Assembly: GCA_964497285.1 (NCBI GenBank)
Contig: CAZCDK010000001.1
Span: 9,472 to 49,751, forward strand
DNA from: an uncultured Anaerolineaceae bacterium
GTDB taxonomy: Bacteria; Chloroflexota; Dehalococcoidia; Tepidiformales; Tepidiformaceae
Reading direction: 5' to 3'
DNA: 40,280 bases
Shown here: one piece after another, positions 5,191 through 22,698 of the stretch
Layout of the letters: the number at the start of each line of letters is the position of its first letter
Position numbering within the stretch: the first letter of the stretch is position 1
Program-made: the position numbers and the translations under genes
The notes under the pieces: model-generated
What the model saw: the letters and a program-made list of their open reading frames with translations, nothing else
Told to the model about the DNA's origin: nothing
Databases searched by the model: none

Positions 5191-7974
5191 ATGGTCCTTG
5201 AATCCGCTGCCAGTCTTCAAGTGAGCTCAGAAGAGCGGTACCGCGAGCGCTGGTCGTGGGACACCGTGAACTGGGCAACCCACTGCATCGACTGCTACCC
5301 CGGCAACTGCCAGATGCGCGTTTATCTCAAGGATGGTCACGTCTTGCGTGAAGAGTCCGCAGGCGTCTACCCCACTGTCCAGGAAGGCGTCCCCGACATG
5401 AACCCGATGGGATGCCAGAAGGGCGTGGGCTGGACGCAGATGCTCGACTCCCAGGAGCGCCTGCTCTACCCGCTCAAGCGAGACGGCGAGCGGGGCTCCG
5501 GGCGGTGGAAGCGGATCAGCTGGGACCAGGCCGCAACGGAGATCGCGGACGCCGTGATCGACGCTGTCCAAGAGCTCGGACCCGAATCAGTGATGGCCCC
5601 ATCGGGCTGCAACCTCGGCACCTGGGGAGCCACGGGACGAGCGCAGTACATGCGCATCATCGGCGGGCTTACAACCGACCTGAACGCGGAGATGAACGAC
5701 TTCAGCCCGGGCCACTACCTGACGTGGGGCACGTTCGACCCGGTTAGCAGCATCGATGATTGGTTCCACGCCGAGCTGACCTTCATCTGGTTCCAGAACC
5801 CGTTCTACACGCGCATTCCGCACATCCACTACGCGCTGGAGAGCCGCTATGCAGGCGGGGAGGTCTGCACCGTTGCGCCCGACGCCTCGCCATCATCGAT
5901 CCACTCCGATTACTACGTGCCGGTGAGGATCGGGAGCGACGCCGCGTTCGCGCTCGGCATGGCCCAGGTTGTCATCGAAGAGGGCCTGGTCAACGAGACC
6001 TTCGTCCGCGAGCAAACCGACCTGCCTCTGCTGGTGAACCCCGCCACAAAACGGTACCTCCGCCAGTCGGACCTTGATGAGGGCGGAAGTGAGGACCAGC
6101 TCTACGCATGGGACGCCATTTCCAACAAGCCAGTTCCGGCACCAAAAGGAACTCTCTTCTGGGGCGCGGCCGCGCCCGCGCTCGAAGGCGAGTGGACCGT
6201 GCAGACGAAGAGCGGGCCGGTGAGGCTGACGACCGTCCATGCGCTGATGCGTGAACGCCTGAAGGAGTACACGCCGGAGAACGCCTCCACCATTTGCGGC
6301 ATCCACCCGGACACCATCCGAACCCTCGCACGCAAGGTTGCGTCAAAGCGAACCAATATCCTGTGCTGTCTCAACAACGCCGGCAAGCACTATCACGGCG
6401 ACCTGATCGAGCGCTCGCAACTGCTCCTCCTTGCGCTGACAGGCAACTGGGGACGGCACGGCACAGGCGTGCGCGCCTGGCTCAGTGGCCTCATGGACGG
6501 CTGGTTTACACCGCTGGCGAAGACGAAGCGAGGGCCCCAGGAACTGAGCGCAATGCTCGACACCATGGAACAGATGGTCGGCATGATTCAAGGCCAGGAT
6601 CCGACCCTCACCCGGGCCCAACTGGCGATCATGCAGGCGAAGATGCCCGGCCAGGGGCAGGGCACCGGGTTCGTACCGCCCGTATTCTGGTGGTATCGCC
6701 ACGCAGGCTACAAGGACGCATGGCAACGTCGTGAATGGCACGACCCGAGCATGGTGCGCGAGTTCGACGACTACTTCCAGGAAGCCGTCGCCAAGGGGTG
6801 GTGGCAGGGTGTCGACCTGCCGCGAGAGAACCAGCCCACGCGCGTCGTGATCGAGTGCGGCGGGAACTTCGTCCGCCGGACTCGCGGCGGCGGCAAGATG
6901 TTGCTTCAGCACCTCTTTCCAGGGCTAAAGATGGTGGCCACGCTCGACGTGCGCATGAGCGGGACGGCGATGCTGTCGGACATCGTCCTGCCGATTGCCC
7001 ACCAGTACGAGAAGCTTGGCTTCGGCATTCCAAGCACGCACACGATGAACCTCACCTTCAGCGATAAGTCGGTGGAACCGCCCGGCGAGGCAGTCGACGA
7101 GTGGGAGGCGTTCCGGCGGCTGGCGGAAAAGCTCGAAGAACGCGCCCGCGCCCGGGGAGTGCAGGTCTACAGCAACGCCCTCGGCGGCCAGCACGACCTC
7201 CAGAAAGCCCACAGCACGTTCACCGCCAACGGCCTGTGGGTCGACACGGAGGCCATGTTCGATGAGATGATCCGCGACAGCGCCCTCATCGGAACGCTGC
7301 CCCCCGACGCAAGCCTGGAAGAGGTGCGCCGGAAGGGGTTCTTCCGCTTCCAGGGACTCGGCATCTCGGCGCGGGCACTCGCACAGGCGACCGACCCCCA
7401 ACCGGACGAGACATTCGTTCCGTTCCGCAACCACGTCGAGAAGGGCGAACCCTATCCAACCCTCTGCCGGCGCGCCCAGTTCCTCATCGAACACGAGTGG
7501 TTCATCGAGGCCGACGAGCATCTGCCCCGGCACAAGGACGCCCCCGCGATGGGCGGCAGCTACCCGTTCCTGCTTACAAGCGGCCACAACCGCTGGAGCA
7601 TCCATTCACTCAACACGGCCAATCACCTCATGCTGGATACCCACCGGGGCACCCCGCACCTTGTGATGATCAAGCTCGATGCAGACCCACTTGGGATCGT
7701 CGACAACGAGACGGTTCGCGTCCACAACGACCAGGGCGACTTCGAGGTGCCGGTCAAGATCTCGCCAACGGCACAGCCCGGCCAGGTGATTGTCTACAAC
7801 GGCTTCGACACCTACCAGTTCCCCAGGTGGGCGTCCGTCAACGACGCCGAACCGGGCATGATCAAGTGGTTGCACCTGGCCGGTGGCTACGGGCATTTGC
7901 GCTACTGGGCGACGGAATGGCAGCCGTGCGCAGTGATGCGGGGAACACGCGTGGGAATCACCAGGCGCCCCTGA
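5191..7974 (+). CDS. Molybdopterin oxidoreductase catalytic subunit, type II DMSO-reductase family (NarG/EbdA-like), paralogue alpha1
   Basis: ORF 5107..7974. ATG 5191 is preceded by GAAGGAG. The N-terminus YRERWSWD..THCIDCYPGNC..NPMGCQKG is a NarG-like FS0 cluster motif. MNDF provides the candidate Asp ligand for Mo. At 927 aa it is in the EbdA/SerA/DdhA size class. No twin-arginine signal. Confidence 0.9.
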   Translation: MVLESAASLQVSSEERYRERWSWDTVNWATHCIDCYPGNCQMRVYLKDGHVLREESAGVYPTVQEGVPDMNPMGCQKGVGWTQMLDSQERLLYPLKRDGERGSGRWKRISWDQAATEIADAVIDAVQELGPESVMAPSGCNLGTWGATGRAQYMRIIGGLTTDLNAEMNDFSPGHYLTWGTFDPVSSIDDWFHAELTFIWFQNPFYTRIPHIHYALESRYAGGEVCTVAPDASPSSIHSDYYVPVRIGSDAAFALGMAQVVIEEGLVNETFVREQTDLPLLVNPATKRYLRQSDLDEGGSEDQLYAWDAISNKPVPAPKGTLFWGAAAPALEGEWTVQTKSGPVRLTTVHALMRERLKEYTPENASTICGIHPDTIRTLARKVASKRTNILCCLNNAGKHYHGDLIERSQLLLLALTGNWGRHGTGVRAWLSGLMDGWFTPLAKTKRGPQELSAMLDTMEQMVGMIQGQDPTLTRAQLAIMQAKMPGQGQGTGFVPPVFWWYRHAGYKDAWQRREWHDPSMVREFDDYFQEAVAKGWWQGVDLPRENQPTRVVIECGGNFVRRTRGGGKMLLQHLFPGLKMVATLDVRMSGTAMLSDIVLPIAHQYEKLGFGIPSTHTMNLTFSDKSVEPPGEAVDEWEAFRRLAEKLEERARARGVQVYSNALGGQHDLQKAHSTFTANGLWVDTEAMFDEMIRDSALIGTLPPDASLEEVRRKGFFRFQGLGISARALAQATDPQPDETFVPFRNHVEKGEPYPTLCRRAQFLIEHEWFIEADEHLPRHKDAPAMGGSYPFLLTSGHNRWSIHSLNTANHLMLDTHRGTPHLVMIKLDADPLGIVDNETVRVHNDQGDFEVPVKISPTAQPGQVIVYNGFDTYQFPRWASVNDAEPGMIKWLHLAGGYGHLRYWATEWQPCAVMRGTRVGITRRP

Positions 7975-8072: not shown

Positions 8073-8088
8073 TATGACGGGAGTCATA
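8073..8088. promoter_or_regulatory. Perfect palindrome TATGA-CGGGAG-TCATA (candidate Crp/Fnr-type operator)
   Basis: Read directly from the sequence. Its centre lies 42.5 nt upstream of the alpha2 ATG. The hexamer GAACAT follows after exactly 21 nt (8110-8115). Confidence 0.65.
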
Positions 8089-8122
8089 CCGATAGGCGCC
8101 CTCGAACCAGAACATTGGCCGC

Positions 8123-10924
8123 ATGACTAGCCAAACCCCCATCGAACCCATCTACACGGGCTGGCAGGATCTCTACCGCCAAAAGTGGGACTGGGACGCC
8201 GTCTACTGGGGAACGCATTGCGTTGACTGCTACCCCGGCAACTGCCCGATGCGCGTCTACGTGAAGGACGGCATCGTCTGGCGCGAGGAACAGTCCGGGT
8301 CCTTCGACACGATCCAGCAGGGCGTGCCCGACTTCAACCCCATGGGCTGCCAGAAGGGCGCCTCCTGGAGCCAATCGCTCTACGGCCCCGATCGCGTCAT
8401 GTTCCCGCTGAAGCGCGCCGGCGAGCGCGGCGAAGGCAAGTGGAACCGCATCAGTTGGGATCAGGCTCTGAGCGAGATCGCAGACAAGCTCATCGACGCC
8501 ATCGAGGAACAGGGGCCCCACTCCACCATCCACGAAGGTACGCCGGGGATGGCCACCGCCGCTCCGACCGGCCGGTTCTTCTCGACCATTGGCGGCCTGG
8601 GCACAGACCTCAACGGGTCGATAAACGACTTCTCGATCGGCCTCTACGAGACTTTCGGGAAGTTTAGTCCGGTCTCGTCCGCCGATGACTGGTTCCATTC
8701 GGAAGTCGTGCTCATCTGGCACATGAACCCGGTCTACACCCGGATCCCCTTCTATCACTTCATCGCTGAAGCGCGTTACAACGGGGCCGAGGTCATCAAC
8801 ATCTCGCCCGACGTGAACCCGTCCCATCTCCACGCAGACATGCAGGTGCCAATTCGGGGCGCGTCGGACCAGGCGTTCGGACTCGCGATGGTTCAGGTGA
8901 TGTTCGAAGAGAACATCGCGAACTGGAAGTTCCTGAAGGAGCAGACCGACTTCGGGTACCTCGTGCGCACCGACACCCGCCGCTACCTCCGCCAGACGGA
9001 CGTCGAGGGCCAGGGCCGGGACGACCAGATGTACCAGTGGATTCCCGGCACCGGACTGAAGCTCGCCGACCGCGGCAGCGTCTTCCTCGGGGATGTGGAC
9101 ATCGCGCTGGAAGGCGTCTTCGACGTGAAGCTGGCCGACGGCTCGACCGTCCAGGTCACGCCCGTCTACTCGGTGCTGAAGAAGAAGCTCGACAGCGAGT
9201 ACACGCCCGAGAAACAGCAGGAGATCACCGGGGTCCACCCGGATGTCGTCCGCACAGTCGCCCGCAAGGTGGCAGCCAAGCGGACGAACATCATGCTTGG
9301 CTACAACGCCTGCAAGTTCTATCACGGCGACCTGATCGAGCGCGTACAGTGCCTCGTTCTCGCCGCCAGCGGGAATTGGGGCAAGCACGGGACCGGCATC
9401 CGCTGCTGGGCCGCCGGCATGCACGACGGCCTTTTCATCTCCTCCAACAAGCCCGGACCCGGCGCGGCCAACACGGAGATCATCCTCGCGGGCCGCGACG
9501 CTGCCGTGGCAGCAATGAAGGCAACCGATCCGACAATGACCACCGAGATCGCGGTGCGCGAGCTCGGTATGCTCGCCTCACGCTTCGAGATGGGTCCGGC
9601 CAACAGCCCCACGGGGTCGTCCACCATCCCGGCGATGATGTGGTACTTCCAGGGCGGCTATGACAAGCGCTGGAACACCCCCGGCTGGGGCGACGAGTCG
9701 CTCCCACGAAAGTTCGACGACTACTTCAACGAGGCCATCGAAAAGGGCTGGTGGCTCGGCTTGGACAAGCCGCGGCCGGAAAACCCCCCACGCGTGCTCA
9801 TTGAGTGCGGCGGAAACATGCTGCGGCGCACTCGCGGAGGCAAGGCGGCACTCCTGCCCACGCTTTGGCCCAAGCTCAGCGCGATCGTGACCATCGACTT
9901 CCGCATGAGCCAGACGGCGCTCTACGCGGACTATTTCCTCCCCGCGGCCCAGCACTATGAGAAGGTCTCGTTCCACATCCCTACGCCTCACGTGATGAAC
10001 CTCACGTTCTCCGACAAGGCGGCGCAGCCGGCAGGCGAAGCCAGGAACGAGTGGGAGATCTACTCCTCGCTGCTGGAGAAGCTCGCGGAACGGGCCCAGG
10101 CGCGCGGGCTCTCGGAATACACCGACAAGCGCGGCTACACCCGAAAATACGGCGAGTTGGCGTCCTACTACTCCATGAACGGGTACCTCCTCGACGAGGA
10201 CAAGATGGCCGACGAAGCCGTTCGTGACTCGGCGTTGGCGGGAACGCTGCCCATGGGCACGAACCTCAAGACCATGCGCGAGAAGGGCCACGTACGCTTC
10301 ATCGACTGGGGCCTCACGCCGATGGCGCTTGCCCAGGCTTCCCCGATTTCCGCGACCGAAACGCATGTTCCGTTCCGCGACAACACCGAGTCTGGGCATC
10401 CCTTCCCCACGTACGCGCGGCGCGCGCAGTTCTACATCGACCACGAATGGTTCCTGGAGGCAGGCGAAGAACTCCCCGTTTGGAAGCCGAACCCCAAGAT
10501 GGGCGGCGACTATCCCCTGGGTCTCACCTCCGGACACAATCGCTGGTCCATCCACGCCATGAACCAGAGCAACAACGTCATCCTCGGCACCCACCGCGGC
10601 GAACCCGACGTCTCGATCAATCCCGACGACGCGGCCGAGCGAGGCGTGAAGGACGGGGATCTCATCCGCGTCTTCAACGACGTGAGTTCCTTCAAGGTTC
10701 GGGCCAGGGTGGCCCCAAACGTGAAGCCGGGCCAGGTCATCTCCTACAACGGCTGGGCCGGCTTCCAGTACACGGACTGGTCGGGCGCGAACGAGATCGA
10801 GCCCGGAATGGTCAAGTGGATCGGGCTGGCCGGGGGCTATGGCCACCTGCGCCACTTGGGCACGGAGTGGCAGCCGGTTCCCAGCGATCGCTGGGTCCGC
10901 TGCGACTTCGAGAAGGTCAACTAG
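8123..10924 (+). CDS. Molybdopterin oxidoreductase catalytic subunit, type II DMSO-reductase family, paralogue alpha2
   Basis: 933-aa ORF. YRQKWDWD..THCVDCYPGNC..NPMGCQKG FS0 motif and INDF candidate Asp ligand. Collinear with alpha1 over its whole length. No Tat motif, and no Shine-Dalgarno sequence visible upstream. Confidence 0.9.
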   Translation: MTSQTPIEPIYTGWQDLYRQKWDWDAVYWGTHCVDCYPGNCPMRVYVKDGIVWREEQSGSFDTIQQGVPDFNPMGCQKGASWSQSLYGPDRVMFPLKRAGERGEGKWNRISWDQALSEIADKLIDAIEEQGPHSTIHEGTPGMATAAPTGRFFSTIGGLGTDLNGSINDFSIGLYETFGKFSPVSSADDWFHSEVVLIWHMNPVYTRIPFYHFIAEARYNGAEVINISPDVNPSHLHADMQVPIRGASDQAFGLAMVQVMFEENIANWKFLKEQTDFGYLVRTDTRRYLRQTDVEGQGRDDQMYQWIPGTGLKLADRGSVFLGDVDIALEGVFDVKLADGSTVQVTPVYSVLKKKLDSEYTPEKQQEITGVHPDVVRTVARKVAAKRTNIMLGYNACKFYHGDLIERVQCLVLAASGNWGKHGTGIRCWAAGMHDGLFISSNKPGPGAANTEIILAGRDAAVAAMKATDPTMTTEIAVRELGMLASRFEMGPANSPTGSSTIPAMMWYFQGGYDKRWNTPGWGDESLPRKFDDYFNEAIEKGWWLGLDKPRPENPPRVLIECGGNMLRRTRGGKAALLPTLWPKLSAIVTIDFRMSQTALYADYFLPAAQHYEKVSFHIPTPHVMNLTFSDKAAQPAGEARNEWEIYSSLLEKLAERAQARGLSEYTDKRGYTRKYGELASYYSMNGYLLDEDKMADEAVRDSALAGTLPMGTNLKTMREKGHVRFIDWGLTPMALAQASPISATETHVPFRDNTESGHPFPTYARRAQFYIDHEWFLEAGEELPVWKPNPKMGGDYPLGLTSGHNRWSIHAMNQSNNVILGTHRGEPDVSINPDDAAERGVKDGDLIRVFNDVSSFKVRARVAPNVKPGQVISYNGWAGFQYTDWSGANEIEPGMVKWIGLAGGYGHLRHLGTEWQPVPSDRWVRCDFEKVN

Positions 10925-10940
10925 GAGGAAGAGGGACACG

Positions 10941-11513
10941 ATGAAAGTCGCAAAGGTGAACGCAGGATCCGACCTCGCCGACCCGGCCGCGCAGGCCTGG
11001 AGCAGCGTGGCCGCGGAAGCGGTATCACTCGCTCCCGTGGCGCTTGCTGCTCAGCCGACGGAGTACATCCGCGAGGCCTGGGCCAGCCGCCCCTACGGCC
11101 AGACAGCCGAGGCGAAGGTGGCCGTCGCCTCCGACGGCAGCAAGCTCTATGTGCGCGTGGAGTGGGCCGACGACGCCAGGCCGAACACCGAATTCCAGGA
11201 CGCGGTCGGCGCCGTCCTCGGCGACGGCACCCTCGCCACCCTCGGAGACGCGAAGGCTCCACTCACGTTGTGGTATTGGGAAAACGGCCGCGGTGCCCTC
11301 AACCTCGTCGCCAAGGGACCGGGCGTGTTTGGCAAGGCCGACGCCGGAGCCGTCAGCGGGGCTGGTGCAATCAGCGACGGGAAGTGGGCCGCTGTCCTGA
11401 GCGGACCGGCCTCGGCCGCCAACGGCAAACTCGGAATCGCCGTGTGGAACGGCTCGAACGAAGAACGGGCGGGCCTCGCCGCCGTCAGCCGCGCCTGGCT
11501 GCCGCTCGAGTAG
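10941..11513 (+). CDS. EB_dh/DOMON-like gamma subunit homologue with no possible haem ligands (gamma1)
   Basis: ATG 10941 follows AGGAGGAAGAGGG. The 190-aa product aligns by eye with gamma2 (QPTEYIREAW / QPSAYVQKAW; LWYW / AWHW; GIAVWNGSNEERAGL / GIAVWSGAASERAGL). No signal peptide. Apart from the initiator Met it has no Met, His or Cys. Confidence 0.8.
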   Translation: MKVAKVNAGSDLADPAAQAWSSVAAEAVSLAPVALAAQPTEYIREAWASRPYGQTAEAKVAVASDGSKLYVRVEWADDARPNTEFQDAVGAVLGDGTLATLGDAKAPLTLWYWENGRGALNLVAKGPGVFGKADAGAVSGAGAISDGKWAAVLSGPASAANGKLGIAVWNGSNEERAGLAAVSRAWLPLE

Positions 11514-11531
11514 GCTCAAGGAGTTACAACG

Positions 11532-12566
11532 ATGACTGCAAACGGAACGCGCCAGATCGCCTGGGTCTTCGACCTCAACAAGTGCATCGGCTGCCAGACA
11601 TGTTCGGTGGCGTGCAAAGTCCTCTGGACCCGCGACGAGGGTGAGAAGCACGAGTGGTGGTGCTCAGTGAACACCCAGCCCGGCCTGGGCACTCCCAAGA
11701 ACTGGGAACAGATGGGCGGCGGTGTCGATCCGAAGTCGGGCAAGCCCGCGGCGGGCCACCAGCCCACCCGCGGTGAGTTCGGCGGCGGCTTCGACTTCAA
11801 CTACTACGAGGTCTTCTACGGCGGCACCGCCGGCAAGGCTCACCTTGAACCGCAGGCCCCACGCGAAGACCGCTGGGCCATGAACTGGGACGAGGACCAG
11901 GGCGCCGGCGAGTGGCCCAACTCGTACTTCTTCTACCTGCCTCGCCTGTGCAACCACTGCACCAATCCCACCTGCATGGAGGCTTGCCCCACGGGCGCCC
12001 TCAGCAAGCGGGACGACGGCCTCGTCTTGCGCGATGAGGACGTCTGCATGGGCGATCGCTTCTGCATGGAAGCCTGCCCCTACAAGAAAATCTACTTCAA
12101 CTACGAGCGCCACGTTTCCCAGCACTGCATCGGCTGCTTCCCTCGCATCGAAGCGGGCGTGGCCCCGGCTTGCGTGCGCCAGTGCCCGGGTCGCGCCGTC
12201 TTCGTCGGCTACATCGACGAGGAGGGCACCCCCGTCCACGACCTCGTGAAGAAGTGGAAGATCGCCCTTCCGCTGCATGCAGAGGCCGGCACCGGACCGA
12301 ACGTCTTTTACGTTCCCCCGCTCTCGCCCTACCGGTTGAACGACGACTTCAGTATCGACTACCAGACGCCGCGCATCCCGCGCGAGTACCTGGAATCGCT
12401 CTTCGGCCCGGAGGTCAATGGGGCCCTTTCCACGCTCAGCGGCGAGATGCAGAAGGTCCGCGAGGGCGGATCATCGGACATGCTCAAGACACTCATCGCC
12501 TACAAGTGGAAGGAATTGCTCGGACCCTTCACCGTCGATCCCGCCGACATCGTCCAAACGGTCTAG
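11532..12566 (+). CDS. Iron-sulfur beta subunit (NarH/EbdB-like, four-cluster ferredoxin), beta1
   Basis: Four cluster motifs: CIGCQTCSVAC, CNHCTNPTCMEACP, CMGDRFCMEACP (spacing of a 3Fe-4S group) and CIGCFPRIEAGVAPACVRQCP. The WW..N..PG insertion is typical of type II beta subunits. RBS AAGGAG. Confidence 0.9.
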   Translation: MTANGTRQIAWVFDLNKCIGCQTCSVACKVLWTRDEGEKHEWWCSVNTQPGLGTPKNWEQMGGGVDPKSGKPAAGHQPTRGEFGGGFDFNYYEVFYGGTAGKAHLEPQAPREDRWAMNWDEDQGAGEWPNSYFFYLPRLCNHCTNPTCMEACPTGALSKRDDGLVLRDEDVCMGDRFCMEACPYKKIYFNYERHVSQHCIGCFPRIEAGVAPACVRQCPGRAVFVGYIDEEGTPVHDLVKKWKIALPLHAEAGTGPNVFYVPPLSPYRLNDDFSIDYQTPRIPREYLESLFGPEVNGALSTLSGEMQKVREGGSSDMLKTLIAYKWKELLGPFTVDPADIVQTV

Positions 12567-12581
12567 CCAGGAGGCGCCGCC

Positions 12582-13268
12582 ATGTTCGTCTACTCACTCG
12601 CCGGTCTCCAGATCGACGGCGAAGCCAGCCAGGAGATGGAGCTTCCGGACAACGAAACCACGGCTCGCCTGGGTGTCTACCAGGTTCTGGCCCGTCTGAT
12701 GGCGTGTCCCGACGCCGACTCCCATGGGGCGGCCTTGGGCGGCGAGTGGCCCGGGCGGTTGGCCCACGATGCCAAGCTGCTTCCGTTTTCCTTCGATTTC
12801 GAGACCGCCTCGATCGATGCGGCAGTCTCCGAATCCAATTTCCAGGCCGAATACCTGCGGCTGTTCGAAGTTGGATCCGGCGAAGGCGGGCCCGGAGCGC
12901 CGCTGTTCGGCGGAGTGTATGGCAGCGGCGACCGGATGAAGAAGCTCGAAGAGGTGGTTCGCTTCTACGAGTACTTCGGACTGAAGGCATCGGCCGAGGA
13001 TCCGCGGCCGGCGGACCACCTCGCCACTGAGATGGAATTCATGAAGTTCTTGACGCTCAAGGAGGCGACCTCCGCGTCGCCCCGGCTGCAGGCCTCGTTC
13101 CGGCGGGCGCAGCATGACTTCTTGGAGCGCCAGCTGACTACGTGGCTACCCGAGCTTTCGAACCGGACCAGGGCGCAGAACCCAATGCCGTTCTGGCAGT
13201 GGGCCGTGGACCGGGCGAACGCCTTTGCCGGGGCCGACTTGGCCTACGTTCAGAGCGTGATGGGGTAG
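12582..13268 (+). CDS. TorD/NarJ-family maturation chaperone (delta1)
   Basis: 228 aa. YQVLARL...EYLRLFEVG....P..GGVY...RFYEYFGL....PADHLATEMEFMKFL matches the nitrate-reductase delta/TorD family pattern. RBS AGGAGG. Confidence 0.85.
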   Translation: MFVYSLAGLQIDGEASQEMELPDNETTARLGVYQVLARLMACPDADSHGAALGGEWPGRLAHDAKLLPFSFDFETASIDAAVSESNFQAEYLRLFEVGSGEGGPGAPLFGGVYGSGDRMKKLEEVVRFYEYFGLKASAEDPRPADHLATEMEFMKFLTLKEATSASPRLQASFRRAQHDFLERQLTTWLPELSNRTRAQNPMPFWQWAVDRANAFAGADLAYVQSVMG

Positions 13269-13316
13269 GACACACCAGCCCAATCCGTTCTCGGCTAGCA
13301 GACAGAAGCGAGACCT

Positions 13317-16061
13317 ATGACTATTCCTGCTGACGGGCAGTACCGGCAGCGCTGGAGTTGGGATCGTGTGACCTTCGGGACGCACTGTCTCAACTGCCTC
13401 GCCACCTGCCCCTACCGTGTCTACTCCCGCAACGGGAAAGTGCTGTTCGAAGAACCGGTCGGGACTTTCCCCCAAATCGACGAGGGCGTACCGGACTTCA
13501 ATCCCATGTCCTGCCAGAAGGGTAGCGCTTGGAGTGTCCAGCTCGACACGCCCGACCGTCTGAAGTACCCCCTGCGTCGCAAAGGAGAGCGCGGCTCAGG
13601 GGAGTGGGAGCGGATCTCCTGGGACGAAGCACTCACGGAGATCGCCGATGCCCTGATCGAGGCGATCGACTTGGAGGGCCCTGAGTCCATCGTCTTCGAG
13701 GAGACGGTCGAAGGCGGACTGCTCACGCAGGCCCCCTATCTCCGCTTTGCCGGCATGCTCGGCGCGGTCACCCTCGATGCGAATGGCCTCATCAACGACT
13801 TCCCCGCAGGGCACCACATCACCTGGGGCAAATTCTCCTGCGCGAGCTCCATGGACGACACGTTCCATTCCGAGCTCCTCCTCATCTGGCACTCGAACCC
13901 CGCCTACACGTGGATTCCTTACGCGCACTTCATCACCGAGGCTCGGTACCACGGATCGAAGGTCGTGTGCATCGCGCCCGACTTCAGCCCCTCCGCGCCC
14001 ATGGCAGACGCCTATGTCCCGATCAAGGTCGCGTCGGACGCCGCGTTCGCGCTCGCAATGTGCCAGGTGATCATCTCCGAGGGCCTGTTCGACCGGGACT
14101 TCGTCCTCTCCCAAACAGATCTGCCACTGCTGGTGAACCCGGCTACGCGCCGCTTCCTTCGTGGTTCGGAGGTCACAGCCGGCGAACGCGAGGACCAGTT
14201 CTACTGGTGGGACGCCGCCTCCGCGAAGATCGAGCAGGCCCCGCGCGGGACCCTGGAGATCGAGGATGTCAGCCCGGCCCTCGAAGGGCGCTGGCGCGTC
14301 ACGACGCTCGATGGCGAAGTCGAAGTCACGACGGTCTGGGAACTGCTCAAGGAACACCTGGGGCAATACACCCCCGAGGCGGTGAGCGGCATCTGCGGCG
14401 TCAGCCCACAGGTCATGCGCGACCTTGCCCGGGAAGTGGCCTCCAAGCGGACGAAGATCCTGGAAGGCTTCAACACACCCAAGTTCTACCACGGCGATCT
14501 GATGGAACGGGCGATGATCCTGCTCCTCGGCCTGACCGCGAACTGGGGGCGCAAGGGCACAGGCATCCAGGGGCTCGCACTCGCCGGCATGGACGGCTAC
14601 ATGCTCTTCGGCATGAAGCAGAAGCGCGGAGTGGCCGAGACCATTCGCGTTATGGAAGGCGTCGAGGGGGCGGTCGAGGCCCTGCGCTCACAGGACCCCG
14701 AGGCGTCGGACGAGATCCTCGGCTACGAACTCCTCCAGCGCGGCCTCGTGTCAGGCACCGCCAGCCCGCCAGCTTTCTTCCACTTCTATCACTGCGGCTA
14801 CAAAGACACGTGGAACACGCCCCAGTGGTCAGATCCATCGATGACGCGCTCGTTCGAGGACTACGTCGGCGACGCCGTGCGACGCGGGTGGTGGGGCGGC
14901 CTGGTGAAGCCCGGGCCGAGTTCCGATCCCCAGGTGCTCTTCATCGTGGCGACCAACCCGATCAGGCGCCAGCGCGGCGGCACGGACACACTCGCCAAGA
15001 CTCTCTGGCCCAAGCTGGAAAAGATCGTCGTTGTCGAAAACCGGATGAGTGCCACCGCATTGCAGGCGGACATCGTGCTTCCGGCGGCGATGCAATACGA
15101 GCGCATCAATCTCCAGTACGCCATCACGCACTCCTTCTCGGTCGGGTTTTCAGACAAGGCCGTGGAGCCCCAGGGCGAAGCGAAGACTGAGTGGGAGATC
15201 TTCAAGGCGCTCTCGAAGGTGATGCAGGAGCGCGCCATCGCCCAGGGCGTGGTCGAGTACCTCGACGGCCGGCGGCAACCCAAGCGGCTTGATGGCCTGT
15301 ACAACTCCTTCACCCTCAACGGTGCCTACGAGAACGAGGAAACCGTCGTCGAGGAGTGGCTTCGCGACAGCATCGAGGCGGGGACGTTGCCCGAAAACGG
15401 CACCCTCAGCCATCTTCGCGAGAATGGGACAGCGCGGTTCATCGATCTTGGCATGTTCGCGCCCGGTCTCTCGCTGGCGGCCGATGTCGAGTCGGACCAG
15501 ACGGACACAGCATTCCAGTGGTACGTCAACGACTTCGGGCCCTACCCGACGCTCACCCGCCGGTCACAGTCTCTGATCGACCACCCGTGGTTCGCCGAGG
15601 CAGGCGAGGACTTGCCCACGCACAAGGACAACCCGAAGCAGGGCGGCGACTACCCGCTCGTGATCACGAGCGGCCATTCCCGGTGGACAGTCCACGCCGT
15701 GTCGATGGGAAACCACGTGCTGCACGGCACGCACCGGGGCGAGCCACTCGGGATCTTGAACGCCTCGGACGCCGCCGCGCGCGGCATCGCGGACGGTGAC
15801 GTAATCGAGGTGTTCAACGACAGGGGCAACTACAATATTCGATGCCGCGTGGCTCCCCGGGTGCGTCCTGGCCAGGTGATCGTGTACAACGGCTGGGAGC
15901 CGCACATGTTCAAGGACTGGAAGGGCGCCAATGAAGTGGAGCCCGGCATGGTCAAGTGGCTGCATCTTGTGAGCCGCTACGGGCATTTGCGTTACCTGCC
16001 GTTCGGCTGGCAGCCAGTCCCTGCCGATCGGTCCGTCTTTGTGGATGTGAGGAAAGCATGA
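13317..16061 (+). CDS. Molybdopterin oxidoreductase catalytic subunit, type II DMSO-reductase family, paralogue alpha3
   Basis: 914-aa ORF. YRQRWSWD..THCLNCLATC..NPMSCQKG FS0 motif and INDF candidate Asp ligand. No Tat motif. Its TGA stop overlaps the next gene's ATG (ATGA). Confidence 0.9.
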   Translation: MTIPADGQYRQRWSWDRVTFGTHCLNCLATCPYRVYSRNGKVLFEEPVGTFPQIDEGVPDFNPMSCQKGSAWSVQLDTPDRLKYPLRRKGERGSGEWERISWDEALTEIADALIEAIDLEGPESIVFEETVEGGLLTQAPYLRFAGMLGAVTLDANGLINDFPAGHHITWGKFSCASSMDDTFHSELLLIWHSNPAYTWIPYAHFITEARYHGSKVVCIAPDFSPSAPMADAYVPIKVASDAAFALAMCQVIISEGLFDRDFVLSQTDLPLLVNPATRRFLRGSEVTAGEREDQFYWWDAASAKIEQAPRGTLEIEDVSPALEGRWRVTTLDGEVEVTTVWELLKEHLGQYTPEAVSGICGVSPQVMRDLAREVASKRTKILEGFNTPKFYHGDLMERAMILLLGLTANWGRKGTGIQGLALAGMDGYMLFGMKQKRGVAETIRVMEGVEGAVEALRSQDPEASDEILGYELLQRGLVSGTASPPAFFHFYHCGYKDTWNTPQWSDPSMTRSFEDYVGDAVRRGWWGGLVKPGPSSDPQVLFIVATNPIRRQRGGTDTLAKTLWPKLEKIVVVENRMSATALQADIVLPAAMQYERINLQYAITHSFSVGFSDKAVEPQGEAKTEWEIFKALSKVMQERAIAQGVVEYLDGRRQPKRLDGLYNSFTLNGAYENEETVVEEWLRDSIEAGTLPENGTLSHLRENGTARFIDLGMFAPGLSLAADVESDQTDTAFQWYVNDFGPYPTLTRRSQSLIDHPWFAEAGEDLPTHKDNPKQGGDYPLVITSGHSRWTVHAVSMGNHVLHGTHRGEPLGILNASDAAARGIADGDVIEVFNDRGNYNIRCRVAPRVRPGQVIVYNGWEPHMFKDWKGANEVEPGMVKWLHLVSRYGHLRYLPFGWQPVPADRSVFVDVRKA

Positions 16062-17515
16062 GTGCACCAACCCCTATTGCCCTGACCCCGGGAGAACACG
16101 CTGCCATCGCGCGGCTGTTCGAAGGTGGAAGGCCGTACTTCTCGCTGCTATCGACGCTCCGGACCAGGCGCATTGGCATGGGCTACCGCAGCGAAACGGG
16201 CGTGGAAGAGACGTTCGATTGGTCGAGCCGCCTGGCGGTACGCCAGCGCGAAGGCCCGTTGGCATACACGTCACCGGCACCGCCGGCGCCGCTTTCGGAA
16301 GTGGAAGAGGCACTCATTGCCTGGGCGGCCCTTGGTCCCAACGGTGTGATCGCCGCCGATGTGGCCGTGAACGGCGACCTTTCGAGCCTCCTCTACTGGG
16401 CCGGGCGTACAGCGCCGGGCTCCAGCAACGACATGGCGGTCAACCTCTTCATCATCAACGACCAGGGCGTGCACCTGTACCGTCCCGGGCCCGAGCGGAT
16501 GGCCCCTGTAGAGATCAGGGGCCCGGATGACTACTGGAAAATCCTCTACTGGTACCGCAACTGCCGAACAAGGATCATGGACCGCCGCCCCGACATCGGC
16601 TACATGACCGCCCCACCCGGCACCCACAACGTGAACTCGATGGGACCTCTCCAGTACAACGCGAACCGGCCCGGAAGCACATGGTTCCTCCCGGTCGGGG
16701 ACGTCGGATTGGAGTGGGTGAACCAGCTCTTGTCGTCGTACCAGTTCTCCGGCTTCTACCTCCAGGACCCGGACACCGACAAGCCGGCTGGTTGCGATCA
16801 GTGGATCCGGCCGGGCTTCCTTGAAGTCGGCTTCCCCCTCCCCACTTTCGACGAGCTCGCGATCATGCAACACGTCTCCGAAGCCGCCTGCGTCGTCCAG
16901 AACATGCGGGTCGCCTGCGAGGCCATGGGCCTCGGCGCCTGGGCAATCGGCGGCTACTCCGACGACATGTTGCTGGGGGCGTACCCCGAAATCGCCCAGG
17001 GCCTCGGCTTTGCCCACCTTGAACGCGACCCGGCCAGGAATCCCTCCCGGACGGCGACCTGCCAGGGTCTCCCCGGTCTCCTGGATGCGACCATGACCCC
17101 CTCTCGCAAGTTCCCGAACGCCGAAGCGCTGGTCACATACGTTGCTCAGCTTCGATACCAGCGCGGAGCGCAGCTCGCCCGGGAGGACAACTGGGCGCTC
17201 GCGGCGGGGGGACCGTTCAACGACCAAACCCTGCAGAAGATCATGGAGCACCCCCGAACACATATCCCCGATTGGGTCATCCAGGCGGCGATTGACACGG
17301 TGAAGTACATCGTCGAGAAGTACGGCTGCGCCCCGGCATACATCAACCCGATGCGAGCCAAGTTCTCGACGCAAGTGCATCACGTCGACCTGGACTACTA
17401 CCGGCAATTCCACGCCGGAGACGGCGAACCGTTCCTTGTGACAACCCAACTCAAAAGCCATTTCACGGACTGGCACCCTGGTGTGGCAGACCCGTATGAG
17501 AGGAGTGCCCGGTAG
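16058..17515 (+). CDS. Large nitroreductase-superfamily-like protein of unknown function
   Basis: ORF 15956..17515. ATG 16058 overlaps the alpha3 stop codon. N-terminal LRTRRIGMGYR resembles the RRSxR FMN motif. LSEVEEALIAWAALG and VQNMRVACEAMGLGAWAIGGY resemble the nitroreductase-fold core helices. At 485 aa it is about twice the size of a classical nitroreductase. The fold call is tentative. Confidence 0.65.
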   Translation: MSAPTPIALTPGEHAAIARLFEGGRPYFSLLSTLRTRRIGMGYRSETGVEETFDWSSRLAVRQREGPLAYTSPAPPAPLSEVEEALIAWAALGPNGVIAADVAVNGDLSSLLYWAGRTAPGSSNDMAVNLFIINDQGVHLYRPGPERMAPVEIRGPDDYWKILYWYRNCRTRIMDRRPDIGYMTAPPGTHNVNSMGPLQYNANRPGSTWFLPVGDVGLEWVNQLLSSYQFSGFYLQDPDTDKPAGCDQWIRPGFLEVGFPLPTFDELAIMQHVSEAACVVQNMRVACEAMGLGAWAIGGYSDDMLLGAYPEIAQGLGFAHLERDPARNPSRTATCQGLPGLLDATMTPSRKFPNAEALVTYVAQLRYQRGAQLAREDNWALAAGGPFNDQTLQKIMEHPRTHIPDWVIQAAIDTVKYIVEKYGCAPAYINPMRAKFSTQVHHVDLDYYRQFHAGDGEPFLVTTQLKSHFTDWHPGVADPYERSAR

Positions 17516-18075
17516 TGTGGTCGAATCCGGATCTGCTATCAACGGTCCTGCAGGTGGTCTATGGCATCCTGCATGACCTCTCCATTGCCGTGTACATCGG
17601 CGGCGCTGTGGCAATGGAGTACGTGCTTGGGCCCGCCCAGAACTCCATCCCGCCAGCGCAGGCGCAGGTGATGGGCCAAAAGACCGCCGACCGGTTCATC
17701 TGGTTGGTCTGGGGGTCACTTGGTGTCATCATTGTCACGGCGATTCTGCGGCTCGAACGGCTGGGCCACATCGCTTTCGGCGGGTCCATACTCCAGTCGT
17801 CAATGGGTCTAGGCCACGACTACGGCCGCACGGTTTGGGCGATGCTCGCCCTCTGGTGCGTTCTCGTGGCGAACGGCGCCATCATGACCTTCAACCTGAG
17901 GCCCAGGCTCTCCGGCAAGTTGAAGCCGGGCACGACCTCGGCCGGCGTCCAGGCCGCCCAACAAGCGAAGATGGATGCCGCCAAGTGGGTCGAGCGGATC
18001 ACCAAAGCCGATATTGTCATCGCCATCGTCATCGCGCTCTTTGGCGCATCTCTCAGGTTCAATGGGATCCTGTAG
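17515..18075 (+). CDS. 4-TM membrane protein, paralogue 1 (unknown family)
   Basis: GTG 17515 overlaps the upstream TAG by 1 nt, with AGGAG 9 nt upstream. Four hydrophobic helices. Shared motif with the next gene: H-x5-AVY[IV]GG-x3-ME[YW]VL-x3-Q-x3-PP-x-Q. Confidence 0.75.
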   Translation: MWSNPDLLSTVLQVVYGILHDLSIAVYIGGAVAMEYVLGPAQNSIPPAQAQVMGQKTADRFIWLVWGSLGVIIVTAILRLERLGHIAFGGSILQSSMGLGHDYGRTVWAMLALWCVLVANGAIMTFNLRPRLSGKLKPGTTSAGVQAAQQAKMDAAKWVERITKADIVIAIVIALFGASLRFNGIL

Positions 18076-18108: not shown

Positions 18109-18636
18109 ATGGACACGCTGCTTGCGTGGGCCCACGCGCTCGCGTGGGCTGTCTACGTCGGCGGATCAATAACCATGGAGTGGGTGCTGCGCTACGCCCA
18201 GAGGACGATGCCACCGTCGCAGGTGTCGATCGTCTGCAAGCGTTCGGGCAGCCGCTACCGCTGGCTCGGGCTCGGAACCCTGGGCGTGATCGGTCTCACC
18301 GGCGCCCTCATGGTGGCCACCCTCGACAGGGACGGGCTCCTCCTCCGGCCGGGCCATCCGGAGCTGGCGCTTTCCGATGCCTACGGGCAGACGGTCGCAG
18401 CGCTTTCGGTCCTCTGGGTGGCACTCGTCACGGCTTCGGCATCGATGGCGTTCTGGCTTCACCCGGCGCAAGCCCGCCGCTCCAGCCCCGAGATGTCCCA
18501 GGACGAGATCCAGGCGGAGCGCCAGCGCGTTGGCCGTGCCATTGCGCGCATGGATCGCGTGCTGAAGTTCGAGCTCCTCACCTCCGTGGTCTCAATTGCC
18601 CTCGGCGCCTCACTTGGTGCCGGCGGGTTGCTTTGA
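18109..18636 (+). CDS. 4-TM membrane protein, paralogue 2 (unknown family)
   Basis: ATG 18109 follows AGGAGA. 175 aa with the same four-helix layout and motifs as 17515..18075 (WAHALAWAVYVGGSITMEWVL..MPPSQ; YGQTV..LW; GASL near the C-terminus). Confidence 0.75.
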   Translation: MDTLLAWAHALAWAVYVGGSITMEWVLRYAQRTMPPSQVSIVCKRSGSRYRWLGLGTLGVIGLTGALMVATLDRDGLLLRPGHPELALSDAYGQTVAALSVLWVALVTASASMAFWLHPAQARRSSPEMSQDEIQAERQRVGRAIARMDRVLKFELLTSVVSIALGASLGAGGLL

Positions 18637-18652: not shown

Positions 18653-19819
18653 ATGCCGAAGACGATCGCGATCACCCCCTCCTGGTACTGGCCAGCCGAC
18701 ATCCCGCGGGTGGCCGGCGTGCCCCCTTTCTCGATCTACGAGCTCTGCGTCTCTCGCGGCGTTCGCGACCGCGCTGGAGAGCCGGCTCTCATCGCCGGGA
18801 AGTCACGCCTCTCCACCAACGAGCTGAAGGACGAAGTCGATCGGCTGGCGTCGGGCCTGGCGGCACGTGCCGGGCAAGGCCGGAGGGCGGTGCTTGCGGG
18901 CGACCCTACCCTCGACACCGTACTCCTGCTGCTGGGCGCCCTCGCGGCCGGCTTGCATGTGCGCATCGCACCGCCGGGATCGAACCTTGCCGCGGTCGCC
19001 CAGCAGTTCGGCACGAGCCTCGTCCTGGAAGGCGCCGGCGCAGTCGAACCGGCGGCAGACGTCCCGCCCCACGTCCCCACCTCTGACGAACTCACCGCAC
19101 CGGCGGTCACGATAGATGGTCGCGACGGACCGGTGAGCCACTCACACCGGTCGTTGCTTGCCGCTGCGCTGAGCATGACCACCTTCTTCGATGCCGACCC
19201 ACGCCGCCCCTGGATGGCGTCGCTGCCCCTGAGTCGTTGGGAGGGATTGGCATCAGTGATCATCCCGCTCTTCCTCGGCGCGCCGCTCGTCCTGTCTCCG
19301 CAGGGTTCCGACGCGGACGCAATCGTGGAGACGATGGTGCGCGAGGGCGTCGGCTACGCGTTCACGGAACTGGACGGAGCAGCAACCCTCACCCGCGACG
19401 CGAAGAAGGCCGTGAAGGACGCGAGGCGCATCCTCAACGCCTTTCTCCTCTCGACTGCGGGTATGTTCGACCCGGACTCGCGCCGCCGCGTCAGCAGAGC
19501 CTTCGAATGCCCGGCCCTGACGGTCTTCGGTCTCCCGGAAACCGGCCCGATCTTCGCCGCGCATCAATCCTGGTACATCGACGAGTCGATCGGTATTCCG
19601 CTAAGCAACGCCCACGTCGTGCCCGCCGACCCGCGTTCTGGCCAGCCAATCCAGGCCCTGTGGGAGCTCGTGGAGTCGGCCGAGGTGACCGTTTGGACGC
19701 CATCGCTGATGGTGGGATACGAGGGAGCCGAACACCCGGAGCGCTTCATCGACGGTCGCTACCGGACCGGCATGATCGCCTCCTCCGACGCCAACGGCAT
19801 GATCTACCTGCTCGGATAG
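18653..19819 (+). CDS. Adenylate-forming (ANL) superfamily homologue, N-terminal domain only, with degenerate motifs
   Basis: ORF 18596..19819; ATG 18653. Collinear with acyl-CoA synthetase N-domains. The P-loop reads TIDGRDGPVSHSHRSL instead of TSGTTGxPKGVxxSHRNL. A5-like motif FGLPETG. The A7 motif reads YRTGM instead of YRTGD. The protein ends at DANGMIYLLG, exactly at the hinge before the C-terminal domain. Confidence 0.75.
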   Translation: MPKTIAITPSWYWPADIPRVAGVPPFSIYELCVSRGVRDRAGEPALIAGKSRLSTNELKDEVDRLASGLAARAGQGRRAVLAGDPTLDTVLLLLGALAAGLHVRIAPPGSNLAAVAQQFGTSLVLEGAGAVEPAADVPPHVPTSDELTAPAVTIDGRDGPVSHSHRSLLAAALSMTTFFDADPRRPWMASLPLSRWEGLASVIIPLFLGAPLVLSPQGSDADAIVETMVREGVGYAFTELDGAATLTRDAKKAVKDARRILNAFLLSTAGMFDPDSRRRVSRAFECPALTVFGLPETGPIFAAHQSWYIDESIGIPLSNAHVVPADPRSGQPIQALWELVESAEVTVWTPSLMVGYEGAEHPERFIDGRYRTGMIASSDANGMIYLLG

Positions 19820-20371: not shown

Positions 20372-21034
20372 TCAGGCAGCCTCTGTGAGGAAAGCCGTCT
20401 CCCGGACGCAGTACTCGTTCAGCAGGCGGAGAACCGCCCGGTAGAACGCGGGCGGATTCTTGCCCTCGACACGCCGCACCGCCTCTGCCGACCAGCGAAG
20501 GAGGTGTCGCGCCAGGACATCGCCCTCGGCGGTCCGGACAGGCGCGGGGTCCTCCCCGTGGCTGAGGTTCGCCTCGCGGAAGGCGAGGAAATGAAGGAAC
20601 TCCAGCACAGTCGGAATGGCGTCCGGGAGGTCACGCGCTTCGCCCGACACGGTAAGACCGAAGTGCCGGTAGAAGCGCAGGAGTTCCTCCATTGAGTCGC
20701 GGCGCGAGGAGGCAAAGACCCCCGCATAGAGCGGCATCGCGGGTCCCCCACCGGGCAGGTCAAAGAGCCGGATGTAGTCGCTCTGGACCTCCAGGTACTC
20801 CATCTCGGGTTCGACGAGCCCCGCGAAGAGCTCCGCCGGCAGGCAGTATGGCAGTACCGCAGCGATGCTCTCTGCCGCGCTCCGGATCTGTCCGCCGCGG
20901 CAGGCTTCAACCAGCTGGTCGGTTGGAAACGAGAGCAATTCGCTGAGGAGCCCGTAGAACTCGCTCCGGGCCCGCGCGGTTTCGTTCACACGTTTCAGCC
21001 TACCGTACCGGCTGCCGCTGGAGCGTGGTCGCAT
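20372..21034 (-). CDS. TorD/NarJ-family maturation chaperone (delta2)
   Basis: SEFYGLLSELL...DYIRLFDLPGGGPAMPLYAGVF...RFYRHFGL...LPDAIPTVLEFLHFL matches delta1 and the TorD/NarJ pattern. The start is uncertain: ATG 21034 overlaps beta2 by 35 nt; GTG 20989 is an alternative. Confidence 0.85.
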   Translation of the reverse strand: MRPRSSGSRYGRLKRVNETARARSEFYGLLSELLSFPTDQLVEACRGGQIRSAAESIAAVLPYCLPAELFAGLVEPEMEYLEVQSDYIRLFDLPGGGPAMPLYAGVFASSRRDSMEELLRFYRHFGLTVSGEARDLPDAIPTVLEFLHFLAFREANLSHGEDPAPVRTAEGDVLARHLLRWSAEAVRRVEGKNPPAFYRAVLRLLNEYCVRETAFLTEAA

Positions 21035-22055
21035 CCGTATCGAACGGCCCCAGAAGGTCGGTCCAGTCGCGCGAGATCAGGATGTCCATCAGCTCGGACT
21101 TCCCGCCCCTGGCGACTTTCTCGCGTTCTGCTTCGATCGTGGCCAGGGCCTTATCGACCCCGGGCCCGAAGAGCTCACGAAGGTACTCGCTCGGACTGCG
21201 CGGATTCTCGTCGTCGAATTCCCCGTTCGCCTTGAACCCGAGAGGCGAAGAGGGCGGCACGTAGAAGACGTTCGGCTGAACACCGAAGTCCGCGTGAAGC
21301 GGGAGCGCCACTTTCCACTTGTTCACAAGCTTGTGGATGTGCCCGTCCTCATTGTCGAGGTAGTCGATGTGGCGCACGCGGCCGGGGCACTGGCGAATGC
21401 ACGCGGGCGCGACGCCCTGCTCGAGCCTGGGGAAGCAGGACATGCACTTCTGGGCGATGTTCCGGCCCTCGTTGAAGTAGATGCGCTTGTACGGGCAGGC
21501 CTCAGCACAGAAGCGGTAGCCGTGGCAGCGCTCTTCATCAATGAGGACAATCCCGTCTTCTTCCCTCTTGTAGACCGATTCGCGCGGGCAGGCCTCGACG
21601 CAGGCTGGCTCTGAGCAATTCATGCAGATCTGCTGCAGGTAGAAGTAGTACGAGTTGGGGTAGACACCGCCACCCATGTCCTCGTCCCAGTTGGGGCCCC
21701 ACGCTGGCGCAGCGCCGTCGTGTTCTCGCGGGCGAAGCGGGATCGCCTCCTCGCGGCCGCTGCCAAACACGCCCTCGTAGTCGAAGTCCCAGGCTTCGCC
21801 CCAGAGCCGCTTCCCCGGGAATGACCCCGCGCGGGGCTCGCCCTTGGCGTCGTATCCGCCGCCATAGGTGAACACGTCTCGGGGCGTACCGCGCCCGGGG
21901 AACGTGTTCACCGCATTCCACCACTGGTGCTCCATGCCGTTGTGGGACGTCCAGGCCGTCTTGCAGGCCAGCGAGCAGGTGTGGCAGCCCAGGCACTTGT
22001 TCAGATCGAACACCATCGCCACCTGGCGTTGGGAAGGCGCCGCTTTCTTTGCCAT
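21000..22055 (-). CDS. Iron-sulfur beta subunit (NarH/EbdB-like), beta2
   Basis: Four cluster motifs: CLGCHTCSLAC, CMNCSEPACVEACP, CHGYRFCAEACP and CMSCFPRLEQGVAPACIRQCP. RBS GGGAGGAGGA. Confidence 0.9.
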   Translation of the reverse strand: MAKKAAPSQRQVAMVFDLNKCLGCHTCSLACKTAWTSHNGMEHQWWNAVNTFPGRGTPRDVFTYGGGYDAKGEPRAGSFPGKRLWGEAWDFDYEGVFGSGREEAIPLRPREHDGAAPAWGPNWDEDMGGGVYPNSYYFYLQQICMNCSEPACVEACPRESVYKREEDGIVLIDEERCHGYRFCAEACPYKRIYFNEGRNIAQKCMSCFPRLEQGVAPACIRQCPGRVRHIDYLDNEDGHIHKLVNKWKVALPLHADFGVQPNVFYVPPSSPLGFKANGEFDDENPRSPSEYLRELFGPGVDKALATIEAEREKVARGGKSELMDILISRDWTDLLGPFDTDATTLQRQPVR

Positions 22056-22077: not shown

Positions 22078-22698
22078 TCAGCCGACCTTGAGGTCGTGCC
22101 AGGTTGGTGTGTGCGACTTCAGTCCTGCCCGTTCGCTGGCGGCGCCGCTCCAGACAGCGATTCCGATCTTGGCCGGGTTGCCCGGGCCCGCCAAGACGAC
22201 GTGCCACGAACCGTTTTGCCATTCGCCGGTCGCCTGGAGCGCGTGCTTCTTCTCACGAGTGACCGTGCCCAGCCCTTGCGCCGTGGCGACGTTCGGGCCG
22301 GCAGCGCCCGCTCGCCAATGCCAGGCGGTGACCGGCTTGCCGGCGCTGCCCATGGTGCCGATCTCGGCGTCGTTCCCGTTCGCAGGAAACAGAACCGCAC
22401 ACGCGTCGGCATACACGTCGTTGTCGTTGATCGTGTGACGCGGGTCTGGGGCCGCCCATTGGAGGCGAACCACGAGCTCGTCCCCGGCGGCGAGGGCCTT
22501 CACCGCCACCGACTCGATGCCGCCGCGCTGCCGCCCGGCCCACGCCTTCTGCACATAGGCCGAGGGCTGCGCCTCCAGGGGCGTCGGCTGCAGTGGCAAC
22601 GATACCTCGATTGCGTCATCCCATGCAGGGGCGCGAGGCGACAGGAGATCCCGGACCACACCTGACGCCTTCTTTGCCGTCACGTTCTGTGTAGTCAT
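22078..22698 (-). CDS. EB_dh/DOMON-like haem-b-type gamma subunit (gamma2), no signal peptide
   Basis: 206 aa. Its ATG overlaps the alpha4 stop codon (ATGA). It retains a Met (GTMGS) and a Lys (AGLKS) at positions expected for the Met/Lys haem ligands of EbdC-type gamma subunits. The N-terminus is hydrophilic. Confidence 0.85.
   Translation of the reverse strand: MTTQNVTAKKASGVVRDLLSPRAPAWDDAIEVSLPLQPTPLEAQPSAYVQKAWAGRQRGGIESVAVKALAAGDELVVRLQWAAPDPRHTINDNDVYADACAVLFPANGNDAEIGTMGSAGKPVTAWHWRAGAAGPNVATAQGLGTVTREKKHALQATGEWQNGSWHVVLAGPGNPAKIGIAVWSGAASERAGLKSHTPTWHDLKVG

Follow-up and report, generated by a model that had tools for sequence, protein, structure and literature searches.

In ethylbenzene dehydrogenase (EbDH), the gamma subunit EbdC carries a haem b of high potential whose ligands are a Met and a Lys (PMC8840923). 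According to published descriptions, EbDH, S25DH1-4, S26DH and the enzymes for p-cymene, dimethyl sulfide, selenate and chlorate are located in the periplasm and contain haem b (PMC8840923, PMC6016249, PMC7411048, PMC10100899), and the catalytic subunits EbdA, S25dA, CmdA, DdhA, SerA and ClrA are all catalogued as periplasmic (PMC10100899). Here, we analysed a stretch of 40,280 nucleotides (the window; positions 9,472 to 49,751 of contig CAZCDK010000001.1, assembly GCA_964497285.1) from an uncultured Anaerolineaceae bacterium, in which the gene gamma1 (10941..11513, + strand) encodes an EbdC-fold subunit of 190 amino acids (aa) without either haem ligand. With a probability of roughly three in four, we consider gamma1 to be a haem-free, structurally retained subunit in a cytoplasmic EbDH-like enzyme family that uses a different electron exit.

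Other described relatives are useful for comparison. Sterolibacterium denitrificans S25DH has several alpha paralogues served by fewer beta-gamma sets (PMC6016249). S25DH and S26DH are periplasmic enzymes with a twin-arginine translocation (Tat) signal and a haem b content of about 0.9 per enzyme, and the S26DH genes are arranged in the order gamma-beta-alpha plus delta (PMC7411048). In NarGHI, the Fe-S cluster FS4 passes electrons straight to an integral membrane subunit rather than to a soluble gamma of the EbdC type, and the type II perchlorate reductase PcrAB (4YDD) is a stable enzyme that was crystallised with only alpha and beta, its terminal electron-transfer partner being a separate protein (PMC8840923).

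The gamma1 ATG is preceded by an AGGAGG ribosome-binding site and the translated protein (N-terminus MKVAKVNAGSDL) contains the initiator as its only Met, no His and no Cys, as an earlier note made from the DNA letters had reported. The probability of finding none of these three residues in the remaining 189 is ~7e-6, given a background Met, His and Cys frequency of 6.1% in the 25 other proteins of the window. Among PDB sequences, gamma1 matched EbdC of Aromatoleum aromaticum (2IVF chain C; phmmer, E 8.6e-9). In this alignment Leu101 (codon CTC, 11241..11243, +) faces EbdC Met108 and Ala180 (codon GCC, 11478..11480, +) faces EbdC Lys201, in agreement with the Leu and Ala that the earlier note had placed at these columns by hand. 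Both columns lie in gap-free motifs conserved on either side, T-x-G around the Met and NEERAG[LI]-x-AVS around the Lys, and the alignment is therefore not in doubt. With these residues, haem ligation of the canonical Met/Lys type is impossible in gamma1. The second gamma subunit of the window, gamma2 (22078..22698, − strand; EbdC match, E 2.6e-23), provides a control within the same genome. Met116 and Lys194 were present at its ligand columns in the phmmer alignment to EbdC, with the numbering already given in the earlier note. A haem-deficient organism was rejected as the cause of the loss, since gamma2 keeps both ligands in the same window.

Despite these substitutions the EbdC-type beta-sandwich fold is retained, as judged by an AlphaFold2 model of gamma1 with a mean confidence (pLDDT) of 92.9, built from a 49-sequence alignment. 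The only significant Foldseek matches of this model were EbdC (2IVF_C; query TM-score, TMq, 0.84; E 2.7e-14) and NxrC (7B04_C; TMq 0.74). Like EbdC, gamma1 has an N-terminus without signal peptide, conserved motifs flanking both ligand columns, and as partners a type II alpha, a four-cluster Fe-S beta and a NarJ-like delta subunit. Unlike EbdC, it has Leu for Met108 and Ala for Lys201, lacks His and Cys altogether and is shorter by ~24 residues. Family scores were low: gamma1 reached 31.1 bits with Pfam EB_dh (PF09459; cut-off 33.3) and 79.6 with TIGR03477 (cut-off 169.85), and gamma2 scored 77 bits with EB_dh and 111.3 with TIGR03477, the latter likewise under the cut-off. The gamma/beta divergence ratio was similar in ligand-less and haem-type systems, with no clear difference, indicating that gamma1 remains subject to purifying selection and does not decay. 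The same comparison gave no support for relaxed constraint or accelerated decay of gamma1.

Gamma1 had 148 homologues in a search of 5.8 billion proteins, and the best 120 (47-91% identity) were analysed. These are nearly all intact (189-206 aa) and are largely from Chloroflexota (Dehalococcoidia, Tepidiformaceae, Thermoflexaceae and metagenome-assembled genomes (MAGs) labelled Anaerolineaceae), the others partly from Thermoleophilia and Acidimicrobiia. At the Lys201 column Ala was found in 103 and Gly in 17 of the 120, and Lys in none; the Met108 column was occupied by Leu (76), Met (30), Phe (7) or Ile (7). The residues flanking the ligand positions were nearly invariant. The earlier note had named other Lys or Tyr ligands as the finding that would speak against a haem-free gamma1, and these found no support in the same 120 sequences: none of the Lys, His, Met and Cys columns is invariant, and the only invariant Tyr, Y42, is a Tyr in haem-type gamma2 as well, so that Y42 is no replacement ligand. 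In this alignment, none of the haem-capable residues is at once invariant and clade-specific. One homologue, P0090, contains no Met, His, Cys or Lys in the whole protein.

The wider family is small. When 1.84 billion cluster representatives were scanned exhaustively with HMMER, only 208 related clusters were retrieved. We tabulated 107 sequences, i.e. 104 full-length representatives together with gamma1, gamma2 and EbdC, and Met and Lys occurred together in 82 of the 107. A neighbour-joining tree was built from 96 family representatives, including 82 with Met/Lys that were chosen on having both, and in it the 13 ligand-less representatives closest to gamma1 formed a single clade. By these comparisons ligand loss is a property of a clade. 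About eight further conserved columns shift jointly in it; in EbdC numbering, N116 is replaced by R, T or S, A122 by D, N or H, R166 by Gly, and positions 135, 137 and 138 become Pro, Val and Phe, respectively. Glu84 was gained and is nearly invariant. Deep members of the clade (P0136 and P0131, 34-35% identity to gamma1) are found in the same gene block, including its AMP-binding gene. In public databases these proteins are listed as 'DMSO reductase family type II enzyme heme b subunit' (DMSO, dimethyl sulfoxide) or 'steroid C-25 hydroxylase gamma subunit'. Isolated ligand changes were also seen outside the main clade, in P0147, P0149, P0162, P0140, P0146, P0151, P0154 and P0167, where the Met and Lys columns read Leu/Ala, Phe/Ala, Met/Ala, Leu/Arg, Asp/His, Met/Met, Lys/Lys and Trp/Arg, the Met/Ala representative being a sister of gamma2. 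Ligands may have been lost or exchanged several times over.

The plus-strand operon has the order alpha1-alpha2-gamma1-beta1-delta1-alpha3-ORF485-CopD1-CopD2-AMP-binding enzyme. Alpha1 (5191..7974, +; Pfam Molybdopterin and Molydop_binding) is a catalytic subunit of the molybdenum bis(pyranopterin guanine dinucleotide) type, as are alpha2 (8123..10924, +), which matches EbdA with E 1.6e-215, and alpha3 (13317..16061, +; assigned by Pfam). Beta1 (11532..12566, +) is the Fe-S subunit for clusters FS1-FS4 and matches EbdB (2IVF_B, E 4.7e-118), and delta1 (12582..13268, +; Pfam Nitrate_red_del, E 1e-18) is a NarJ-type assembly chaperone. The second operon, on the minus strand (25592-20372), contains alpha4 (22695..25592), gamma2, the Fe-S subunit beta2 (21000..22055) and the chaperone delta2 (20372..21034). 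Compared with 2IVF_B, beta1 has kept all four Cys groups, including the three-Cys pattern that ligates the [3Fe-4S] cluster FS4. The Mo-ligand Asp (EbdA Asp223) and the His and Cys of FS0 (equivalents of His82 and Cys86) are kept in alpha1-alpha4. Since the Mo site and the Fe-S ligands from FS0 to FS4 are conserved, the catalytic site and the electron wire seem to be intact, the last centre alone being affected. At the column of EbdA His192, alpha1-alpha3 have a gap and alpha4 an Asn, with the Mo-ligand Asp kept; the substrate probably differs from that of EbDH, and the handling of protons perhaps does so too.

The partner alphas of gamma1 also differ from ethylbenzene dehydrogenase in having no Tat signal. 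No twin-arginine motif was found in alpha1-alpha3 or their orthologues, and alpha2 aligns to EbdA from residue 59 onward, i.e. past the EbdA signal peptide. The lack of a Tat signal on these alphas points to a cytoplasmic enzyme, and the complex containing the ligand-less gamma (alpha1, alpha2 or alpha3 with beta1 and gamma1) would be cytoplasmic. The N-terminus of alpha4 (25592-25450), SPSLRRLKPADAGAHLAEIL, shows a twin-arginine remnant (vestigial SLRRLKP motif) without a hydrophobic h-region, and its partner gamma2 has both ligands. It resembles the N-terminus of NarG, which carries a vestigial Tat motif. Cytoplasmic location alone was rejected as the cause of ligand loss: alpha4 is also without functional Tat signal, yet gamma2 keeps its ligands.

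To see what goes with ligand loss, we compared 37 loci fetched from reference genomes. They fell into two types with clean separation. In the first (L001-L018 and L034; Chloroflexota and Actinomycetota), the order was alpha1-alpha2-gamma-beta-delta-alpha3-ORF485-CopD-CopD, the gammas were ligand-less and no Tat motif was found in any alpha of the 19 loci scanned. In the second (L019-L036, alphaproteobacterial), the order was gamma-beta-alpha-delta, which matches that of S26DH, every alpha carried a canonical T/SRRxFLK Tat signal, and the gammas had kept both ligands in otherwise near-identical motifs (NEERAGIKAVS and xMG). The alpha2-gamma1-beta1-delta1 arrangement was kept in at least 19 loci; this alpha-gamma-beta-delta order differs from that of the ebd genes, which is alpha-beta-gamma-delta. 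A single beta/gamma/delta set with three alphas recurred in more than 15 genomes, in line with the proposal of the earlier note that one gamma serves several alphas. S25DH and S26DH resemble the window enzyme in this respect, with several alphas per beta-gamma set, and belong to the same alkyl-chain hydroxylase subfamily.

The block ORF485-CopD1-CopD2 kept its synteny in all ligand-less or gamma-less loci that reached far enough downstream. It was not found in Met/Lys-type loci, and the alphaproteobacterial S26DH-like loci yielded neither ORF485 nor CopD genes. Two gamma-less loci were retrieved through ORF485. L042 (GCA_054033475.1, JBPNNO010000048.1, 2607-13724) contains ORF485, two CopD genes and the AMP-ligase, and its alpha2-like stop codon overlaps the beta start (TGATG). 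L046 (ENA ERZ25071411 contig_14, 6577-18582) has the order delta-alpha3-ORF474-CopD-CopD-AMP-DUF3237-beta-delta-alpha, with ORF474 at the position of ORF485 and 'AMP' denoting the AMP-ligase. No gamma was detected in ~21 kb of L042 or L046 by tblastn with gamma1 and gamma2. L044 and L045 combine a ligand-less gamma with an additional beta-delta-alpha set without gamma. Comparison of gamma-less with ligand-less loci leaves as invariant core beta, delta, an alpha3-type subunit, ORF485, CopD1, CopD2 and the AMP-binding enzyme. In this block gamma either lacks its ligands or is absent. The structural gamma and different electron exit suggested in the earlier note gain support both from the two gamma-less loci and from the module that accompanies ligand-less or absent gammas.

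ORF485 (16058..17515, +) is a conserved hypothetical protein with a predicted nitroreductase (flavin mononucleotide) fold and a candidate electron-transfer partner. It has 171 homologues, the best 120 of which share 55-94% identity and are nearly all without a Pfam domain. Its AlphaFold model (pLDDT 78) gave nitroreductases 3hj9, 3hoi and 8cqs as best PDB matches (probability 1.0, target TM-score ~0.5), and weak matches to PF00881 and SagB were found; ORF485 is possibly a flavoprotein. Near its C-terminus H441, H442, H468 and H473 are invariant, forming a possible metal or haem site. CopD1 (17515..18075, +; Pfam CopD, E 7.9e-9) and its paralogue CopD2 (18109..18636, +; Pfam CopD, E 5e-5, under cut-off) are predicted membrane proteins, CopD1 being a candidate anchor. 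H20, Y27, M34 and E35 of CopD1 are invariant in 19 unique orthologues, as are M23, C43, Y50, H118 and M148 of CopD2 in 18, and the two share the motif H-x6-Y-x-GG-x3-ME. CopD2 His9 was discarded as a conserved ligand, since the deepest orthologues have Met or Phe at this position. In Pfam scans, no NarI-family (Nitrate_red_gam) match was obtained for CopD1 or CopD2; the membrane proteins of the operon match CopD (PF05425) and DUF4149. The start of ORF485 overlaps the alpha3 stop codon, and ORF485 and CopD1 share a stop/start overlap too, which suggests translational coupling at both junctions. The last conserved gene of the block encodes an AMP-binding (adenylate-forming) enzyme (18653..19819, +; Pfam AMP-binding), found at the same position in L038, L040, L042, L044 and L046.

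Taken together, these results are best explained if gamma1 is the haem-free descendant of a haem-b gamma of the EbDH-type molybdenum hydroxylases (type II DMSO reductase family). We infer the absence of haem in gamma1 from its sequence and from comparative genomics. Gamma1 would persist as a structural or docking subunit, or as a shield, on beta near FS4. Electrons would leave the [3Fe-4S] FS4 of beta1 to another partner, bypassing the gamma haem. The best candidates would be ORF485 and the CopD1/CopD2 pair, the three genes that are always found with the clade; the invariant His and Met residues of the CopD pair could hold a metal or haem and provide a link to the quinone pool. The handover from FS4 to ORF485/CopD is proposed by analogy with the transfer from FS4 to the membrane subunit in NarGHI, itself a cytoplasmic enzyme of the type II DMSO reductase family and the closest analogy to the proposed CopD anchor. 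In contrast to the window enzyme, NarGHI has a dihaem b subunit of another family, NarI, and no EbdC-fold or nitroreductase-like partner. The beta1 subunit also matches that of PcrAB (4YDD_B, E 3e-103), which differs in its haem c partner PcrC, its periplasmic location and its function as a reductase. More tentatively, a whole cytoplasmic EbDH-type branch (in Chloroflexota, in Actinomycetota and in a small number of proteobacterial MAGs) might have reduced gamma to a cofactor-less vestige, deleted in some lineages, and moved the terminal redox role to a dedicated module of three proteins, a nitroreductase-fold protein with its invariant His cluster and a CopD-like membrane heterodimer, that wires O2-independent C-H hydroxylation to the membrane.

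Several points weigh against a haem-free gamma with a different electron exit. A quarter (25%) of clade members retain Met at the first ligand column. Gamma2 shows that cytoplasmic location alone need not cause haem loss. A gamma-type subunit that is still under selection does something, which could in principle be cofactor binding, and the gamma of L042 and L046 could be encoded elsewhere in the genome. Finally, the roles proposed for ORF485 and the CopD proteins derive from synteny and fold, and the module could equally well serve substrate activation or enzyme maturation.

The first alternative is that gamma1 binds haem b through non-canonical ligands, such as Tyr42, a carboxylate (e.g. Glu84), the retained Met, water or a residue of beta or ORF485. 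The EbdC fold has been kept, gamma1 is under purifying selection, Glu84 was gained and is nearly invariant, and Met persists in 30 of the 120 homologues, all of which would fit such a haem. Yet every homologue has Ala or Gly in place of the Lys, none of the residues able to act as a ligand combines invariance with clade specificity, Tyr42 is common to haem-type gammas, and P0090 is devoid of Met, Lys, His and Cys alike. Haems ligated by Tyr or a carboxylate are of low potential and would be poorly suited as acceptors downstream of a [3Fe-4S] cluster, and related loci contain no gamma at all. We regard this alternative as improbable. Similarly unlikely is reuse of the haem pocket for another ligand (quinone, flavin, lipid or hydrophobic substrate), with gamma1 as a cofactor- or substrate-handling subunit. 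The coordinated clade-specific substitutions at ~8 further conserved columns and a purifying selection comparable to that on haem-type gammas would fit such a function; however, these substitutions are equally consistent with pocket filling or partner docking, no positive evidence points to any ligand, and the gamma-less relatives imply that the subunit is dispensable in some lineages. A decaying or mis-called gamma1 gene, with the enzyme using gamma2, is effectively refuted: the Pfam and TIGRFAM scores under curated cut-offs might suggest it, but gamma2 falls under the TIGR03477 cut-off as well, and the 148 homologues (nearly all intact among the best 120), the strong ribosome-binding site, the high-confidence fold, the conserved synteny and the lack of rate acceleration all argue against it.

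In the literature searched, beyond which lie many subscription papers, we found no paper on a haem-ligand-free or absent EbdC-type gamma, and nothing on cytoplasmic EbDH-like enzymes, on such enzymes in Chloroflexota or on an association with ORF485/CopD. All characterised enzymes of the subfamily are described as alpha-beta-gamma complexes with a Met/Lys-ligated haem b of high potential at their end, and this haem explains why they need cytochrome c or high-potential dye acceptors. A cytoplasmic clade without haem, if it exists, would need a different acceptor, and its redox window would probably differ too. This would matter for the range of substrates open to hydroxylation in the absence of oxygen and for the coupling of the reaction to energy conservation, and heterologous expression of hydroxylases for biocatalysis might skip export and haem insertion. 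The 'haem b subunit' labels in public databases would then constitute a systematic annotation error.

Some additional observations concern the genes of the block and its surroundings. CopD proteins are usually associated with copper, which does not explain a CopD pair inside a molybdoenzyme operon; a literature search for CopD together with haem returned lung-disease papers only. In the deepest ligand-less loci, a COX15/CtaA-family gene is located upstream of the first alpha, at a distance of two genes (L038, 5423-6283; L040, 553-1524; L041, 3659-4648); it is absent from the window. COX15/CtaA is the haem A synthase family, described as haem-binding membrane proteins. In L038, the AMP-binding gene is followed by a gene for a radical SAM (S-adenosylmethionine)/SPASM protein with a SEC-C motif (19255-20574), which together with the SagB-like signal of ORF485 resembles peptide-maturation gene sets. 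A DUF3237 protein is encoded after the AMP-binding gene in L042 (13756-14226), L044 (13843-14337) and L046 (13586-14080), and not in the window. A canonical nitroreductase (27295-28083) is found among the window neighbours, and the genes at 26062-32583 and 35771-37444 include acyl-CoA (coenzyme A) dehydrogenases, a thiolase-like protein, a CoA-transferase and a methylmalonyl-CoA mutase. This neighbourhood suggests that the substrates of the hydroxylase feed a CoA-thioester and beta-oxidation-type catabolism.

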